Shown: positions 2,766 to 61,840 of the stretch, in pieces | How the letters are laid out: the number at the start of each line of letters is the position of its first letter | Position numbering within the stretch: the first letter of the stretch is position 1 | Assembly (NCBI GenBank): GCA_028821195.1 | Contig: JAPPHB010000118.1 | Location: 19,765 to 83,764 of the forward strand | DNA from: Gammaproteobacteria bacterium | GTDB taxonomy: Bacteria; Gemmatimonadota; Gemmatimonadetes; Longimicrobiales; Gaopeijiaceae | Reading direction: 5' to 3' | DNA length: 64,000 bases | Program-made: the position numbers and the translations under genes | The notes under the pieces: generated by a model | What the model saw: only the letters and a program-made list of their open reading frames with translations | The model's database searches: none | Told to the model about the DNA's origin: nothing

Positions 2766-4544
2766 TCAGTGCTCCGAGGACTCCTCCATGGCCTCCCGCG
2801 CCGCGGCCTCGATCTCCCATGGGATAGCTGAGTCGCGATAGAGGGCAGCCCCGTTCGACAGGATGGGATCCTTGCCTTTCGCCGGGGCTTGGGGATGAGC
2901 CGTTGGGACCGGCACGCTCGCGAGCGAAGTCTCGGCCGGGGCGCCGGGATGAACCGTTGGGACGGGCGGCAAGCCCGCAACCAAAGTCTCAGCCGGGGCG
3001 CCGGGATGAGCCGTTGGGACCGGCGGCAAGCCCGATCTCTCGCCACCTCGAGCCGCTTTGGGCCTGCTCGGCGCGTCCACGAGCATCCTCCCCCTCGGCG
3101 TGAAGAACAGCACCGTCCCGTCACCGTTCACGGATACCTTCACCCGCCCCTCGTGAACGGCTCGATGATGCCGCCGGCAGAGCAGCAGCGTGTTCCGGAG
3201 GCTCGTTTCGCCCCCGTCGGCCCAGTGCTTCACATGATGGGCCTCGGTAAACGTGCAGCCACACCCCGGAAAGCGGCATCCCCGGTCCCGCTCCTCCAGC
3301 GCCCGACGGATATGCGGCGGAATGGTGCGCGTGCGACGCCCCACGTTCAGCATCGAGCCGTCCTTCGCGTGGACCATCGCGACCACCGCGGCATCGCACG
3401 CCATACGCCGCGACGTCTCCGCGGAAACGCGGATCCCGTCCAGATCCGAACGCCCGGGCTCGCCTTCGGCCGCGAGCGTCGCGGCGTCGCAATGAACCAT
3501 GACCTGGTAGCGCTCGGCCCGGGTGCCGGACCCGACGCGGGCTGACGTGTTCGCCGCATTCTCCGCCTTGGCTCCCGGCGTTTCCGCGGGCGCTCCCCGC
3601 AGGGCTGCATTGGACTCGGTGGTCTGAGCACCATCGAGTTCATCGAGGTCGCGACCCATCGTATTCCCATCGCCATCCGATTCACGGCGCTCGCCACCTC
3701 CGAACCCGGCGGCCAGCGCTCGTTCCGCCAGCAGCCCCACCGCATCCGCCCGGCGCTGCTTCGGCTCGAGGCGCGCATCGGCGGCCTCGCCACTGGCACC
3801 CCTTCCACTTCGCGCCCCTTCTCGGGCATCGTCCTCGGACCGAAACAGCGCATCCGACGCCGCCTCGACCGCCCGCATCAGCACCGCCCCGACCTCCGGC
3901 TCGAGCCGGCCCTTCACCACGTACATCCCGTCGCCGTCCACGAAGACCGAGAAGGTGCGGCTGCGGTGCCGGGCCTGCTCGGCGGTCAGCTCCGCGTCGC
4001 GCGACAGCTTCCTCCACATGCGCACCGTCCGCTCCAGCTTCGCCGCCGAGCCCGCGCGGGCGAACTCGAGCAGCTCCGCCTCGCGCTCGGGAGTCGCAAC
4101 CCGGGTGAGCGCCCGCACCTTGGCGTACGAGATAGTCCCGTGCTTCAGAGCGTCGGCGGTCTGCGGCAGACGCTCCAACGCGCGGGCCGTCCGCACCCGT
4201 TCGCGGGCCGTCCCCATCTTCGTGCCGGTCCTCCAGGCCAGCCATTCGGCGCAGGAGGAGTAGCCGCCGTCCTTCCACCCGCCCCGCCGGTCGAACTCGG
4301 CGATCAGAGTCATCATGCGCGCCTCGGCGGAGTTGATGCGGGCCGCCAGTTCCGCGATGCGCTCGCCCAGCTTGCGGAGTTCGTCGTCGTCACCGTCGCC
4401 CGCGGCGCGACTCGGGGCGTGCTCGGGATCGGAGGGCGCGGGGTTGGCGTCGAGTCGCACACCCGTCGGTTCCCGCACCATCGCGGGCCACGAGGAGGGT
4501 TTCCGGCGAGTGTTGTAGAGAATGTCCGCAGATGGGATCAACAT
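2766..4544 (-). CDS. DUF222 + HNH endonuclease family protein (REP13E12-like), copy A
   Basis: DUF222-like N-region (AELAARINSAEARMMTLIAEFDRRGGW, TISYAKVRALTRV). C-terminal HNH motif CRFPGCGC..EAHHVKHWADGGETSLRNTLLLCRRHHRAVHEG. The ORF is open to 4598, but ATG 4544 behind GAGAGGA aligns with the start of the paralog at 37769/37766. Confidence 0.85.
   Translation of the reverse strand: MLIPSADILYNTRRKPSSWPAMVREPTGVRLDANPAPSDPEHAPSRAAGDGDDDELRKLGERIAELAARINSAEARMMTLIAEFDRRGGWKDGGYSSCAEWLAWRTGTKMGTARERVRTARALERLPQTADALKHGTISYAKVRALTRVATPEREAELLEFARAGSAAKLERTVRMWRKLSRDAELTAEQARHRSRTFSVFVDGDGMYVVKGRLEPEVGAVLMRAVEAASDALFRSEDDAREGARSGRGASGEAADARLEPKQRRADAVGLLAERALAAGFGGGERRESDGDGNTMGRDLDELDGAQTTESNAALRGAPAETPGAKAENAANTSARVGSGTRAERYQVMVHCDAATLAAEGEPGRSDLDGIRVSAETSRRMACDAAVVAMVHAKDGSMLNVGRRTRTIPPHIRRALEERDRGCRFPGCGCTFTEAHHVKHWADGGETSLRNTLLLCRRHHRAVHEGRVKVSVNGDGTVLFFTPRGRMLVDAPSRPKAARGGERSGLPPVPTAHPGAPAETLVAGLPPVPTVHPGAPAETSLASVPVPTAHPQAPAKGKDPILSNGAALYRDSAIPWEIEAAAREAMEESSEH
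2884..3040. repeat. In-frame tandem repeat (units of 54, 57 and about 40 nt) inside HNH copy A
   Basis: Units start at 2884, 2938 and 2995 (ggggcgccgggatga(a/g)ccgttgggac...). They encode GLPPVPT(A/V)HPGAPAET three times. Copy B carries a single unit (DLPPVPSVRPGAPSTRE). Confidence 0.85.
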
Positions 4545-30911: not shown

Positions 30912-32279
30912 TCAACCCACCCACACCGACTTCACGTTCACGAACTCGTGGATGCCGAAGAGGGAGAGTTCGCGTCCGTAGCCGCTTTCCTTGACCCCGC
31001 CGAAGGGGAGCTGGGGGTCGGAGCGCACGAAGGCGTTCACGAAGCAGTTGCCCGCATCGATCTCCTCGGCCGCAATGCGCCGCCCGCGCTCCAGATCGCG
31101 GGTGAAGACCGAGGCGCCCAGCCCGTAGCGGGTGTCGTTGGCCACCGCGATGGCCTCGCGCTCGTCCGCTACCGCCACGATGGACACGACCGGGCCGAAC
31201 AGCTCTTCCTCGTAGGCGGGCATGCCCGGGCCCACGTCGGCCAGCACGGTGGGCGGATAGAACCAGCCCGGCCGGTCGGGCACGTGGCCGCCCACCAGGA
31301 GCGACGCGCCCGCCTCGACGCTCCCCTGCACCTGGTCGTGCAGGCGGTCGCGCAGGTCCTCGCGTGCCAGCGGGCCGATGCGGTTGGCCTCGTCGAAGGG
31401 ATCGCCGAAGGTCGCGGTGGCCATCGCCTCCACCACCCGCTCGCGCAGCTCGGCGAGAACGGGCTCGACCACGATGCAGCGCTTGGCGGCGATGCAGCTC
31501 TGCCCGGCGTTGATCAGGCGGCTGGTCACGCACAGGCGCGTGGCGAGTTCCAGGTCGGCGTCCTCGAGCACGATGCAGGGGTCGTTGCCGCCCAGCTCCA
31601 GCACGGACTTCTTGACGTGGGCGGCGGCGGTCGCGGCCACCGTCTTCCCGGCGACGGTGCTCCCCGTCAGCGTCACCGCGCGCACACGCGGGTCGGCGAT
31701 GAGTTCGGCTGCGCGGTCGTGGTCGATGAGCAGCGCGCGGAAGAGGCCTTCGGGGAACCCGGCTTCGCGGAAGATGCCCTCGATGGCCAGCCCGCACCCC
31801 GGGACGTTGGGCGCGTGCTTAAGGAGCGTCCCGTTACCCGCCATCAGGTTGGGCGCGGCGAAGCGGAAGACCTGCCAGAAGGGGTAGTTCCAGGGCATGA
31901 TGGCGAAGACGATGCCGATCGGCTGGAAGGTGATGAAGCTCTGGCGGGCTTCGGTTTCGACCGGTTGCGGAGCGAGGTAGCCGGGAGCGTGCTCGGCGTA
32001 GTGTTCGCACACCATGGCGCACTTCTCGATCTCCGCGCGAGCCTCCCGCACGGGCTTCCCCATTTCGCGGGTCATGAGTTCGGCAAACTCCTCGCGCCGC
32101 TCCCTCAGGATGGCCGCCAGGCTCCCCACAAGCCGCGACCGCTCCTCCATGGGGGTGTCGCGCCAGGCCAGGAAGGCCTTCTGGCAGCCGGCCACGGCGC
32201 GGGCGTAGTCGCCGGAGGACATCTCGGGGTAGTCCCTGATGCGCCGGCCGGTCGCGGGATCTATCGCAGTGAACGGCAT
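30912..32279 (-). CDS. NAD(P)-dependent aldehyde dehydrogenase (succinate-semialdehyde dehydrogenase-like)
   Basis: IMPWNYPFWQ, ELGGNDP, and the catalytic Cys context GQSCIAAKR. ATG 32279 behind GGAGG. Confidence 0.85.
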   Translation of the reverse strand: MPFTAIDPATGRRIRDYPEMSSGDYARAVAGCQKAFLAWRDTPMEERSRLVGSLAAILRERREEFAELMTREMGKPVREARAEIEKCAMVCEHYAEHAPGYLAPQPVETEARQSFITFQPIGIVFAIMPWNYPFWQVFRFAAPNLMAGNGTLLKHAPNVPGCGLAIEGIFREAGFPEGLFRALLIDHDRAAELIADPRVRAVTLTGSTVAGKTVAATAAAHVKKSVLELGGNDPCIVLEDADLELATRLCVTSRLINAGQSCIAAKRCIVVEPVLAELRERVVEAMATATFGDPFDEANRIGPLAREDLRDRLHDQVQGSVEAGASLLVGGHVPDRPGWFYPPTVLADVGPGMPAYEEELFGPVVSIVAVADEREAIAVANDTRYGLGASVFTRDLERGRRIAAEEIDAGNCFVNAFVRSDPQLPFGGVKESGYGRELSLFGIHEFVNVKSVWVG

Positions 32280-32344: not shown

Positions 32345-33976
32345 ATGGAAACAAGGCGTCCCACCACTCCCGAGGCCGAGGAGATCCTCGGACTCTACTA
32401 CCCCGTGCTCGACCACGGCTTCGTCTCGCTGGTCGACTACATGGGGACCGACGAGAGCATCGAGCACGCCGCGCGCGTAAGCTACGGCTACGGCACCCGC
32501 AGGCGCAGCGCCACCCGCGGGCTCATCCGCTACCTGCGCCGGCATCTGCACACCACGCCCAGCGAGATGGTCGAGCTCAAGTTCCACTGCGCCATGCCGA
32601 TGTTCGTGGCGCGCCAGTGGGTGCGGCACCGGACGGCGTGCCTGGCGGAGGGCACCGAGGTGTTCTTCGACCTGCCTGGTGCCGAAGCGAGGGGGCGCCG
32701 CCAACTCTACAAGCTGCCCATCGAAGAGATCTGGCGACGCTTTCAACCCACGCGGAATCGAACTCGCCCCGACAAGCAGCGGAACCCGTTTTTTCGCCTC
32801 GATCGCGTTCGCCGGATGAAACTCAGGCAAGTCAACGAGGACACTCTGGCGTTCCAGCACACCCGCGTTGTGGACGTGTACCGGAACGGCCCGAAGCCGG
32901 TGTTCAGGATGGTTCTGGAGGACGGCAAGTCCATCGAAGCCACAGCTGATCACCGATTCATGTTTGCCGACGGCTGGAACACGCTCGGGGCAGCGACCCG
33001 GTTGCGGGAGATCGGTGGGCGCGCGGCGTGGCAGCCCGGCGACCACTTCGTTTACGTCAACGGCGCAGCCGAAGAGCGCCCCGCATTCTACCGCGATCCG
33101 ATCTGGCTGCAGCGCGAGTACCGCGGATCCGGACAGTCGTTGGCGACAGCCAGCCGCCTCGACAAGGCCAAGCTCGTGCGGATCAAGCACTTCGAGTTCG
33201 TGGGCGAGCGGGAGACATACGACCTCGAAGTCGAAGGCCCATACCACAACTTTGTGGCGAACGGCATCGTCACCCACAACTCAATTAATGAGTATTCGGG
33301 TCGCTACAGTCTGATGCCGCTCCTCTTCTACAGCCCCGATAGAGAGAACTTCTCGCTCCAGAGCACCTCCAACAATCAGGGGAGGGAGGAGGATGCCGCT
33401 CCGAAGGGCCTCTATCGGGATGCGATCCGGCAATGGGAGGATGTGCGCAAGTCCGCTTCCCAGGCGTACGGGTGGATGGTCGAGCAGGATATCGCCCGCG
33501 AGCTGGCCCGAATCGACTTGCCGCTGTCGACATACACGCAGTGGTACTGGAAGATCGACCTGCACAACCTGCTGCACTTCCTCACGCTTCGCGTGGATGA
33601 TCACGCCCAGTGGGAGATCCAGGAGTTCGGGCGGGTGATGGCGGGGATGCTCAAGCGGGTGGCCCCGATGAGCTTCGAGGCCTGGATCGACTACCAGGTG
33701 TGCGGCGACAAGCTGAGCCGAATGGAGCTGGAGGCCCTGGCCACACTGCTCGCGCCGGGAGAGGGTGGCGGGCTCGAGGTACGGGAAGGTGGCGGATCGC
33801 TCAGCTTCGAGGAACTGCGCGGAATGGGGATGGCGCCGCGGGAAGTCCGCGAGCTGGTCGGCAAGATCCGGCGCCGGACCGCTCCGGATTTCGATCTGGA
33901 TCTTGCGCGCTTCCGGAGCGCGGAGGACGTGGCCGCAGAGATGCACGAGGCGGTGCCCGAGGGGAGTTTCGAATAG
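32345..33976 (+). CDS. thyX: FAD-dependent thymidylate synthase ThyX, interrupted by an intein
   Basis: N-extein ...FVARQWVRHRTA and C-extein SINEYSGRYS... rejoin to RHR-X7-S-X-R-Y, the ThyX signature. The rest of the C-extein is ThyX-like (YTQWYWKIDLHNLLHFLTLR). Confidence 0.9.
   Translation: METRRPTTPEAEEILGLYYPVLDHGFVSLVDYMGTDESIEHAARVSYGYGTRRRSATRGLIRYLRRHLHTTPSEMVELKFHCAMPMFVARQWVRHRTACLAEGTEVFFDLPGAEARGRRQLYKLPIEEIWRRFQPTRNRTRPDKQRNPFFRLDRVRRMKLRQVNEDTLAFQHTRVVDVYRNGPKPVFRMVLEDGKSIEATADHRFMFADGWNTLGAATRLREIGGRAAWQPGDHFVYVNGAAEERPAFYRDPIWLQREYRGSGQSLATASRLDKAKLVRIKHFEFVGERETYDLEVEGPYHNFVANGIVTHNSINEYSGRYSLMPLLFYSPDRENFSLQSTSNNQGREEDAAPKGLYRDAIRQWEDVRKSASQAYGWMVEQDIARELARIDLPLSTYTQWYWKIDLHNLLHFLTLRVDDHAQWEIQEFGRVMAGMLKRVAPMSFEAWIDYQVCGDKLSRMELEALATLLAPGEGGGLEVREGGGSLSFEELRGMGMAPREVRELVGKIRRRTAPDFDLDLARFRSAEDVAAEMHEAVPEGSFE
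32639..33280 (+). mobile_element. Class-1 mini-intein (214 aa) within thyX
   Basis: Block A CLAEGTEV (Cys1 codon TGC 32639-32641), block B IEATADHRF (TxxH), block F ETYDLEVEGPYHNFVANG, block G IVTHN followed by +1 Ser (TCA 33281-33283). No LAGLIDADG or HNH endonuclease motif. Confidence 0.9.
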
Positions 33977-34048: not shown

Positions 34049-36217
34049 ATGAGTGTTTTGAAGACGAGTATGAGCGACGCAGGAGGACCAATGCACGAGC
34101 ACGACAACCCCCGGACAAGGCCGGCGCCGGGCCGCGTTCCCCGCGGGCCCGCGTTGGCGGCGCTGGCCCTGGTTCTGGTCCTGACGGGGCCGGTGGCAGG
34201 CCTCTCGGCGCAGGACATGGACGCCGCGCCGCGCCCGATGAACATCGTCGACCTCATCGACGTGCCGACGCTAGGCGACCCGCGCATCTCCCCTGACGGA
34301 ACCCGGCTGCTCTTCGTTCGCCGGGACGCCGACTGGGAGGAGAACGGTACCGTCGCCCACATCTGGAGGGTGGACGCGGACGGCGGCAACCTGATCCAGG
34401 TCACCAACGGCGAGAACGGGGAGACGAGCCCACGCTGGTCGCCCGACGGAAGCCGCATCGCCTTCCTGGCCCGGCGCGGCGAGGATGAGCACACCCGGAT
34501 CTACCTGCTGAACGCCATGGGAGGAGAGGCGAACGCCCTCACCGATCATCCGACGGCGGTCTCGAGCATCACCTGGGCCCCGGATGGCAGCGGTATCTAC
34601 TTCGTAGCTTCGGACGAACTCTCGGAGAAGGAGCAGGCCGCGCGCGCCGCCGGGGACGATGTCTTCGCCTTCGACGAGAACTATCAGCAGCTCCACATCT
34701 GGCGCGCGAGCGTGGACGACGGCGAGGCGAGCCGGGTCACGGAAGGCGACTACTCGGTCACCGGATACTCGCTTTCGCGCGACGGCACCCACATCGCCTT
34801 CCACCGCGGAGAATCGCCGCTCTTCGAGGGCGTGGACCGGCGCGAGGTGTGGGTGATACGGGCGGACGGGAGCGACGCGCGCCAGCTCACCCGCAACTCG
34901 GTGCCGGAATACAACGCGCGCCTTTCTCCGGACAACCAGTGGGTGGCCTTCCACGCGGACTCGAACGAGGACTTCGACTTCTACTACAACGACAATCTCT
35001 TTCTCGTCCCGGCATCCGGAGACGGAGAGGCGCGCATACTGCTTCCGGACATGCCGCACGGGGTCGACGCCATCGCGTGGTCGGGCGACGGCGAGGCCAT
35101 CTTCTTCCGCGCCAACTCGGGCGTGCGCGAGGAGCTGATGCGCGTGGACATCGAAGGCGAGCGCCTGACCCAGTTGACCGAGGGCGACCACCAGGTCATC
35201 AACTGGCAATACGCGCCCGCGGTGGACGCGCACGTCTTCGGACTCAACCGGGCGGACAACCGGGGCGACCTGTGGGTGATGTCCGACGACGGCCCCGAGC
35301 GCGTCACCCACGTCTTCGACTACCTCACCGAGGACTTCCTGCAGCCGCGCCAGGAGGCCATCCGCTGGCGGGGTGAGGACGGCATCGAGGTCGAGGGGCT
35401 GCTCTTCTACCCGCTCGAGTATGAGGAGGGCACCCGGTATCCGCTGGTGGTCCAGACCCACGGCGGGCCCGCCTCGTCCGACAAGTTCCAGTTCTCCACC
35501 GCGGGCAACTTCGTGCAGGTGCTGAACGGAATGGGCTACTTCGTCTTCAAGCCCAACTACCGGGGCAGCACCGGGTACGGCGACGACTTCCTGCGCAACA
35601 TGGTGGGCAACTACTTCGATCAGGCCCACCTGGATGTCATGACCGGGGTCGACCACCTGATCGATCTCGGCCTGGTGGACGGCGCGCGCATGGCCAAGAT
35701 GGGATGGAGCGCCGGCGGGCACATGACCAACAAGATCATCACCCACACCGGCCGCTTCAAAGCCGCCGCCTCCGGAGCGGGCGCCGCCAACTGGGTGTCG
35801 ATGTACGCCCAGAGCGACATCCGTGTCTACCGGACCCCGTGGTTCGGCGGCACCCCCTGGGAGGAGGACGCGCCCGTCGACCAGTACTGGCAAGACTCGC
35901 CGCTGCGCGAGGTGTGGCGGGTGAGCACGCCGACGATCTTTCTCGTGGGCGAAGAGGACGCCCGCGTGCCCATGCCGCAGTCGGTGGAGATGTACCGCGG
36001 GCTCAAGCACAACGGCGTTCCGACGCATCTCTATGTAGCGCCGCGCGCGGGGCACGGCTGGACCGAACTCCGGCACCAGCTCTTCAAGGCCAACGTGCAC
36101 CTGGAGTGGTTCGAGCGCTGGGTGCACGACCGCGAGTACGAGTGGGAGGAGGCGCCGGGGGACGAGGAGGAGGCGCGGGCTACAACGACCGCGGAGGAGT
36201 CGCCGCGACCCGGGTGA
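34049..36217 (+). CDS. S9 family serine peptidase (acylaminoacyl / prolyl oligopeptidase-like) with an N-terminal beta-propeller
   Basis: TolB-like repeats (SPDG..IAF). C-terminal alpha/beta hydrolase with the nucleophile GWSAGGH, and later ...DARVP, ...GHGW. Confidence 0.85.
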   Translation: MSVLKTSMSDAGGPMHEHDNPRTRPAPGRVPRGPALAALALVLVLTGPVAGLSAQDMDAAPRPMNIVDLIDVPTLGDPRISPDGTRLLFVRRDADWEENGTVAHIWRVDADGGNLIQVTNGENGETSPRWSPDGSRIAFLARRGEDEHTRIYLLNAMGGEANALTDHPTAVSSITWAPDGSGIYFVASDELSEKEQAARAAGDDVFAFDENYQQLHIWRASVDDGEASRVTEGDYSVTGYSLSRDGTHIAFHRGESPLFEGVDRREVWVIRADGSDARQLTRNSVPEYNARLSPDNQWVAFHADSNEDFDFYYNDNLFLVPASGDGEARILLPDMPHGVDAIAWSGDGEAIFFRANSGVREELMRVDIEGERLTQLTEGDHQVINWQYAPAVDAHVFGLNRADNRGDLWVMSDDGPERVTHVFDYLTEDFLQPRQEAIRWRGEDGIEVEGLLFYPLEYEEGTRYPLVVQTHGGPASSDKFQFSTAGNFVQVLNGMGYFVFKPNYRGSTGYGDDFLRNMVGNYFDQAHLDVMTGVDHLIDLGLVDGARMAKMGWSAGGHMTNKIITHTGRFKAAASGAGAANWVSMYAQSDIRVYRTPWFGGTPWEEDAPVDQYWQDSPLREVWRVSTPTIFLVGEEDARVPMPQSVEMYRGLKHNGVPTHLYVAPRAGHGWTELRHQLFKANVHLEWFERWVHDREYEWEEAPGDEEEARATTTAEESPRPG

Positions 36218-61767: not shown

Positions 61768-61840
61768 GCCTCGCTAGCTCAACTGGTAGAGCAACTGACT
61801 CTTAATCAGTAGGTTCGGGGTTCGAGTCCCTGGCGGGGCA
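61768..61840 (+). tRNA. tRNA-Lys(CTT): tRNA-Lys (anticodon CTT), CCA not encoded
   Basis: Hand-folded 73-nt cloverleaf: acceptor GCCTCGC/GCGGGGC (one G-U pair), D arm GCTC-AACTGGTA-GAGC, anticodon arm ACTGA-CTCTTAA-TCAGT, variable AGGTT, T arm CGGGG-TTCGAGT-CCCTG, discriminator A. Confidence 0.9.

Follow-up and report, generated by a model that had tools for sequence, protein, structure and literature searches.

What are 214 residues doing inside the catalytic motif of a thymidylate synthase? The enzyme in question is encoded by thyX in a stretch of 64,000 nucleotides (nt) from the Gemmatimonadota contig JAPPHB010000118.1; the whole of this stretch was analyzed and is called the window here. 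We find that the insert is very probably a genuine cis-splicing class-1 mini-intein in a chromosomal thyX, derived from an intein with a homing endonuclease and inherited vertically; the analysis shows its anatomy, homology, predicted fold, origin by deletion, sequence constraint and sporadic occurrence, whereas its splicing, past homing and essentiality are what we infer. The initial annotation of the window had placed a mini-intein of 214 amino acids (aa) in the ThyX motif at 32639-33280, and these coordinates proved exact.

The thyX precursor, 543 aa plus stop in the list of open reading frames (ORFs) of the window, matches its family in two pieces. Profile hidden Markov models identify it as a thymidylate synthase: two separated stretches match Pfam Thy1 PF02511 (E 1.3e-45), and the NCBIfam thyX model TIGR02170 gives E 7.5e-46, with 156 bits against curated cut-offs of 24.8 and 87.9. 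In a phmmer search of the PDB, query residues 17-99 align to residues 5-87 of the Thermus-type ThyX 6j61 and query residues 313-472 to its residues 87-240, contiguous across residue 87. Therefore, aa 99-312 are a clean insertion of 214 residues and the ThyX part is complete. The codon of Cys99 begins at nt 32639 and that of Asn312 finishes at nt 33280. After removal of the insert, the exteins join as QWVRHRTA/SINEYSGRY (slashes mark splice junctions and insertion points), which restores the ThyX motif RHR-X7-S-X-R-Y, also recognizable as RHRxxxxxxxS in the joined sequence RHRTASINEYSGRY. The exteins are predicted, from the family profiles and the restored motif, to encode an active flavin adenine dinucleotide (FAD)-dependent thymidylate synthase (ThyX, or flavin-dependent thymidylate synthase, FDTS).

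The class-1 splicing blocks named in the initial annotation are all present in the insert. Searched alone, it matches Intein_splicing PF14890 (E 1.4e-12) and resembles the DnaB, DnaE and RecA mini-inteins of the PDB at the sequence level; intein_Nterm TIGR01445 covers aa 99-206 and intein_Cterm TIGR01443 covers aa 290-313 (E 1.1e-07). Cys99 stands directly after RHRTA, and as Cys1 it is invariant in 163 of 163 extracted ThyX-site inteins, as is the His-Asn terminus; the intein ends in ...YHNFVANGIVTHN/S with Ser at position +1. Block B reads T200-A-D-H203 within IEATADHRF, where H203 and D202 are invariant in alignment A1, and the block B His is likewise invariant in alignments A2 and A3. Class-3 inteins have no N-terminal nucleophile and carry a Trp-Cys-Thr triad in blocks B, F and G. 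This class was rejected for the insert, which begins with Cys1, shows Asp (YDLEV) in block F where a Cys would be expected, and holds a single Cys overall. The domain profile search of the 214-aa insert found no HNH or LAGLIDADG domain, as the initial annotation had it, and no second copy of the intein was found in the 64-kb window. As far as sequence can tell, aa 99-312 are a class-1 intein without an endonuclease, set inside the catalytic motif of ThyX.

The fold of the insert was predicted with AlphaFold2 from an alignment of 19 related inteins (A3). The model has a mean predicted local distance difference test (pLDDT) of 81.8 and a predicted template modelling score (pTM) of 0.76; its beta-rich core exceeds pLDDT 90, residues 11-60 range over 52-83 and the linker at residues 141-170 over 53-61. 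Among the top 50 Foldseek matches in the PDB, every structure is an intein or a bacterial intein-like (BIL) domain. Ssp DnaB (E 4e-10), Mtu RecA and Npu DnaB rank best, and the highest TM-score, 0.87 normalised to the target, is that to Mtu RecA. Alignment to PF02511 and to intein profiles, with a check for a Hint fold, had been proposed at the outset to separate an intein from a normal ThyX insertion; both sets of profiles match, and the model assigns a Hint fold to the intein.

Table 1. Coordinates of the thyX precursor, its predicted intein and the neighbouring genes in the window; aa numbers refer to the precursor
Feature	Position	Strand	Basis
thyX precursor ORF, predicted flavin-dependent thymidylate synthase interrupted by intein	32345..33976	+	PF02511, TIGR02170
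N-extein, aa 1-98, end ...FVARQWVRHRTA, first half of ThyX motif	32345..32638	+	6j61 residues 5-87
Predicted class-1 mini-intein, 214 aa (aa 99-312), Cys1...His-Asn	32639..33280	+	PF14890, TIGR01445, TIGR01443, AlphaFold2, Foldseek
Intein block A, CLAEGTEVFFDLP (aa 99-111), Cys1 nucleophile	32639..32677	+	Cys1 invariance, alignments A1/A3
Conserved basic A-B insert, QPTRNRTRPDKQRNPFFRLDRVRRMK (aa 134-159)	32744..32821	+	Cluster-representative conservation
Intein block B, GKSIEATADHRFMF (aa 194-207), T200-x-x-H203	32924..32965	+	Alignment invariance
Remnant of lost homing-endonuclease module, PAFYRDPIWLQREYRGSGQSLATAS (aa 246-270)	33080..33154	+	DNA alignment to L083
Intein blocks F and G, ETYDLEVEGPYHNFVANGIVTHN (aa 290-312), penultimate His311, Asn312	33212..33280	+	TIGR01443
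C-extein, aa 313-543, +1 Ser in SINEYSGRYS, second half of motif	33281..33973	+	6j61 residues 87-240
Aldehyde dehydrogenase	30912..32279	-	
S9 prolyl-oligopeptidase-type peptidase	34049..36217	+	

How the intein came to be without an endonuclease can be read from its relatives. A protein search returned thousands of ThyX relatives, and the intein is present in all of the best 120. Close relatives at 85-97% identity measure 542-589 aa, and many relatives, at 72-97% identity, have kept the ORF unbroken. Longer relatives, of about 707-710 aa, contain HNH (PF01844) and helix-turn-helix (HTH) families within the intein. One of them, P0026 at locus L083, has an intein of 382 aa with HTH matches at aa 258-294 and HNH at aa 367-408, and its locus is syntenic with the window: aldehyde dehydrogenase (-), thyX (+) and S9 peptidase (+). 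In the DNA alignment with L083, 504 nt (168 codons) are missing in frame from the window at about 33143-33152, as gaps of 385 and 119 nt; the shared intein parts are 90% identical. In alignment A1 the window sequence PAFYRDPIWLQREYRG... pairs with the lead-in to the HTH of the long forms (...REYRGHRRSLADLAQACGVTVHTIRKWL...), and RLDKAKL pairs with sequence past their HNH domain. The initial annotation had taken the linker between blocks B and F for a decayed HTH segment, which was essentially right and can be sharpened to the N-terminal stub of an HTH and HNH module that is intact in relatives.

By these alignments, the window mini-intein is a deletion derivative of an intein of about 382 aa with HTH and HNH, of which a stub just before and entering the HTH remains. 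The full-length inteins (P0026/L083, P0083 and P0110) represent the direct parental form and are presumably still able to home. The converse reading, in which the 168 codons were inserted in the relatives, was rejected: homologous HTH and HNH modules are also found in deeply branching members, at 69-71% identity, and pieces of this module, differing from one form to the next, survive in several of the mini-inteins. Some of the mini forms in alignment A1 retain the C-terminal tail of the HNH region. The deletion junction of the window intein is also found in its closest relative, P0002, and the same alignment contains at least six other deletion end-points among relatives (P0012, P0023, P0029, P0052, P0059/P0082 and P0086). 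Such differing end-points imply that endonuclease loss occurred repeatedly, as the homing-cycle model predicts.

The composition and divergence of the intein resemble those of its surroundings. Its GC content is 63.4% (80.8% at third codon positions, GC3), against 65.0% (GC3 85.4%) in the exteins and 68.5% in the whole window. Nucleotide identity to L083 amounts to 95.6% in the N-extein, 0.86-0.95 over most of thyX and 0.87-0.97 over the flanking genes, with synteny stopping near 36150. A recent horizontal arrival, with intein identity above that of the flanks, left no sign in this comparison, which gives an even identity to L083 along the locus. Pairwise Nei-Gojobori ratios of nonsynonymous to synonymous substitution (dN/dS) range over 0.07-0.43 in the intein and 0.09-0.25 in the ThyX core of the exteins, pairs with dS >1 being saturated and only indicative; in the linker with the endonuclease stub they reach 0.3-1.1 in most comparisons, from few codons. 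Because GC is host-like, divergence equals that of the flanking genes and dN/dS is low, these data indicate long vertical residence with splicing retained, the residence having been suggested from GC content at the outset. The constraint on the intein follows the pattern expected if splicing must persist because ThyX is needed, a link that we infer.

The initial annotation had also remarked on an unusually basic insert between blocks A and B. Its basic character is real, the segment QPTRNRTRPDKQRNPFFRLDRVRRMK (aa 134-159) having 10 K/R against 2 D/E and a net charge of +8, but it is not peculiar to the window gene: 43 of 44 representatives of 50%-identity clusters possess it, P0142 alone being without it, and it is conserved about as well as the core strands of Hint. 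The insert follows the first Hint helix and adds about 24 aa relative to canonical mini-inteins; by an eye reading of the PDB alignment, Ssp DnaB has about a couple of residues there. An insert also occurs at the equivalent position in the intein of mycobacteriophage Cane17, which is compared below. In the region that contains it (aa 108-158), dN/dS is 0.04-0.33, and purifying selection extends even to endonuclease-free inteins. The insert appears to be a conserved, selectively maintained hallmark of the ThyX-site intein lineage, and our preferred reading is that of a DNA-contacting or structural element from the endonuclease-bearing ancestor. It is unlikely, in our judgement, that the insert is a module outliving the endonuclease, whether as a nucleic-acid or nucleotide sensor that would make splicing and the synthesis of deoxythymidine monophosphate (dTMP) conditional, or as a DNA-recognition element for mobilisation in trans by an HNH-bearing relative. 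In one relative, P0082 (582 aa), and in no other member of alignment A1, a 58-aa in-frame insertion (ASSAGMNPAEHRERSG...EGFRPRA; columns 131-188) falls within the intein, where it separates block A from the basic segment.

We propose the following history. An ancestral HNH endonuclease would have cut an intein-free thyX at the codons of RHRTA/S, the intein being copied in by repair. An in-frame deletion of 168 codons then took away the HTH body and the HNH domain, and left the Hint splicing domain and a short stub. In the 543-aa precursor, 214 residues separate RHR from S-x-R-Y, the two halves of the motif, so that the site for deoxyuridine monophosphate (dUMP) and FAD should be unable to form. 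By the standard class-1 pathway, an N-S acyl shift at Cys99, helped by T200 and H203, would produce a thioester; transesterification would move the N-extein to the hydroxyl of Ser313; cyclisation of Asn312, helped by His311, would free the intein; and an O-N shift would yield a 329-aa ThyX with its motif intact. The intein would now be immobile on its own, passed vertically and kept able to splice, since ThyX would be inactivated if splicing were lost.

Several other explanations of the insert have to be set against this one. That aa 99-312 form an ordinary lineage-specific insertion domain of ThyX, and no intein, could be supposed from public annotation, which for ThyX relatives with a source name is (FAD-dependent) thymidylate synthase only. 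This is refuted and has virtually no chance of being right: the intein models score above their thresholds, the predicted fold is Hint, and the boundaries are exactly Cys...HisAsn/Ser, where intein-free orthologues are contiguous. A splicing-dead relic would require thyX to be a pseudogene, or the enzyme to tolerate the 214-aa insertion, with dTMP coming from thyA or salvage elsewhere. Decay does happen in the family, one defunct insert (L017, described below) having only the C-terminal part of the intein, and our tblastn search for thyA and folA, with E. coli ThyA and FolA as queries, gave no match in the 64-kb window, to which this negative applies. However, all catalytic residues are intact and invariant, purifying selection on the intein is similar to that on the exteins, the ORF persists across many relatives, and the insertion parts residues that must adjoin in the active site, so that we hold a relic to be very improbable.

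A co-opted post-translational switch, in which splicing conditional on redox state, on nucleotides, or on DNA through the basic insert would gate dTMP synthesis, has in its favour the position of the intein within the active site of a DNA-precursor enzyme, together with the near-universal and constrained basic insert. A structural role, or DNA binding in the service of former homing, would account for that constraint just as well, however; P0142 does without the insert, and the single Cys makes an internal disulfide trap impossible. Such a switch is quite improbable. The reading we retain is that of a vertically inherited mini-intein whose autocatalytic cis-splicing is predicted from sequence and modelled fold. 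Against it weigh, besides the saturation of some dN/dS pairs, that the poorly modelled stub linker (pLDDT 53-61) could in principle slow folding, and that a thyA elsewhere in the genome could make ThyX, and hence splicing, dispensable. If the organism is without thyA, its DNA synthesis would depend on protein splicing.

Scanning the genomes of species representatives gave 80 loci. Intein-bearing thyX genes are found in metagenome-assembled genomes (MAGs) of Gemmatimonadota and Longimicrobiales (L003-L016), the closest being a Gemmatimonadetes MAG (L003) at 84% identity, and also in two bins with other labels, Akkermansiaceae for L008 and Thermoplasmata for L019. At least 43 further loci have a contiguous, intein-free thyX reading RHRTASVNEYSGRY or close variants, with CAGTGGATCCGGCACCGCACGGCC/TCGGTGAACGAGTACAGCGGCCGC as the empty-site sequence at the insertion point; intein-free loci come from Longimicrobiales, Candidatus Palauibacter, Polyangiaceae and Myxococcota. 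Intein-free alleles within the same orders are as expected of a homing element. The intein alone, searched against 1.84 billion cluster representatives, gave 2616 matches at E <= 1e-3 and 482 at E <= 1e-10. Of the 78 nearest representatives scanned, from clusters at 50% identity, 75 proved to be ThyX proteins, and the intein hence represents a large allele specific to ThyX; their endonucleases are HNH (29), HNH_3 with NUMOD4 (about 25), LAGLIDADG (3) or none. One Anaerolineae MAG is among the members of 10 distant cluster representatives. The allele is widely distributed among Gemmatimonadota, some members being assigned to bins of other phyla, and related inteins occupy hundreds of 50%-identity clusters.

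Individual members of the family deviate from the common form. The MAG labelled Thermoplasmata archaeon (L019, JBEKEY010000072.1, 3001-5319) encodes a divergent ThyX with the same intein at the same site, its insert extending about 100 aa beyond the 382-aa form and containing two HTH-like segments and HNH; provided that the bin is assigned correctly, the allele has passed between domains. In a MAG labelled Vicinamibacterales (L017, CBDCSL010000002.1), the thyX ORF at about 3001-4191 reads RHRTS-SINEYSGR-STALCRSVKQQVTRRILRQAKLVKIVEYVGERETYDLEVEGPHHNFVANGIVTHN/SVNEYSGRY. Its insert is the C-terminal part of an intein, without Cys1 and without blocks A and B; duplications affect the extein segment SINEYSGR and, upstream, HCAMP. 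This thyX is either a dead gene or an assembly artefact. The C-terminal part of ThyX in P0047 (655 aa, on a 1.57-Mb contig) runs off-register past about aa 480 into an Arg/Pro/Gly-rich tail, which looks like a frameshift, whether a sequencing error or a true lesion.

Other features of the locus concern the exteins and the surroundings of thyX. The window ThyX has a C-terminal extension of about 70-90 aa (33761-33973, aa ~473-543) past the Pfam Thy1 domain and the solved ThyX structures. It is conserved within the Gemmatimonadota/Myxococcota clade (...PDFDLDL..AEDVAAEMHEAVP) and evolves faster than the core (dN/dS 0.15-0.64). The first codons of the C-extein, at 33281-33310, are TCA ATT AAT GAG TAT TCG GGT CGC TAC AGT, half of them A/T-ending against a GC3 of about 84% in thyX. 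Other occupied alleles likewise have GAA, TAT, AAT and AGG at the first C-extein codons, and empty-site genes read TCG GTG AAC GAG TAC AGC GGC CGC. The A/T-ending codons 3' of the intein are possibly an old co-conversion tract or the result of drift of the former target site. Of the two neighbouring genes, the aldehyde dehydrogenase probably starts at the Met that gives 455 aa, leaving a divergent intergenic region of 65 nt. Neither Rfam nor tRNA scans gave a match connected with the thyX locus; the sole RNA family match in the window is a tRNA-Lys (CTT) at 61768-61840 (+).

The closest published parallel to the insertion comes from phages, where thymidylate synthase 'TdS' inteins are known in mycobacteriophages (Kelley et al. 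2016, PMC5050341). In gp82 of Cane17 (mycobacteriophage, Bixzunavirus, cluster C1), the sequence ...HRHRSGF/CVAGSTRV...(HNH)...YDLEMPGPYHNFIANGLVVHN/SYNEESGRY has the intein in the same host protein and at the same insertion point, RHRSGF/C...HN/SYNEESGRY in the phage corresponding to RHRTA/C...HN/SINEYSGRY in the window. Blocks F and G are near-identical (MTYDLEMPGPYHNFIANGLVVHN in Cane17, ETYDLEVEGPYHNFVANGIVTHN in the window) and both inteins have class-1 termini, with about 32% identity over the matched precursor. An in-frame HNH endonuclease is common to the Cane17 intein and the full-length relatives of the window intein. By contrast, the window intein itself is endonuclease-free and chromosomal, in Gemmatimonadota, whereas the Cane17 intein keeps its HNH and sits in a phage genome. 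In-frame HNH endonucleases in actinophage inteins are the subject of a 2025 preprint, with thymidylate synthase among four host proteins.

Nearer to the window in taxonomy, the full-length Gemmatimonadota/Longimicrobiales inteins occupy the same site and have about 168 residues more. The best sequence and fold matches, Ssp and Npu DnaB (1mi8, 4o1r, 6frg) and Mtu RecA (2in9), have the same Hint fold and class-1 blocks, but differ in their exteins, are without the basic A-B insert of about 24 aa and the endonuclease stub, and are 18-20% identical. The ThyX intein of Trichodesmium erythraeum (Ter) was reportedly described by Liu and Yang in 2004 (J Bacteriol 186:6316). With its endonuclease region removed, it becomes a 170-aa mini-intein that splices at about 100%, according to Lin et al. 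(2013, PMC3620165). Like the window intein it is a bacterial ThyX intein, compared here by published function; unlike for the window intein, the host is a cyanobacterium and the gene also has a group II intron. The efficient splicing of the Ter mini-intein means that endonuclease loss is compatible with splicing in ThyX inteins. For a wider comparison we take COG1351 to be the ThyX family. Novikova et al. (2016) listed 21 inteins in thymidylate synthase (COG1351), in Actinobacteria and Cyanobacteria only.

The remark in the initial annotation that ThyX inteins occur in cyanobacteria and phages is borne out by the Ter intein, the mycobacteriophage inteins and the 2016 survey. The clade of the window intein offers a natural series of full-length inteins with HTH and HNH, several independent endonuclease deletions and empty sites, of use to studies of the homing cycle and as a source of compact Ser+1 mini-inteins. 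It adds scope and no new principle, inteins in ThyX, and at this very site, being already known. Whether site and lineage are new had been left as a question, and sequence comparison gives a divided answer: the insertion site is that already known from mycobacteriophage ThyX, and Gemmatimonadota is a host phylum added to those of Novikova et al. (2016).

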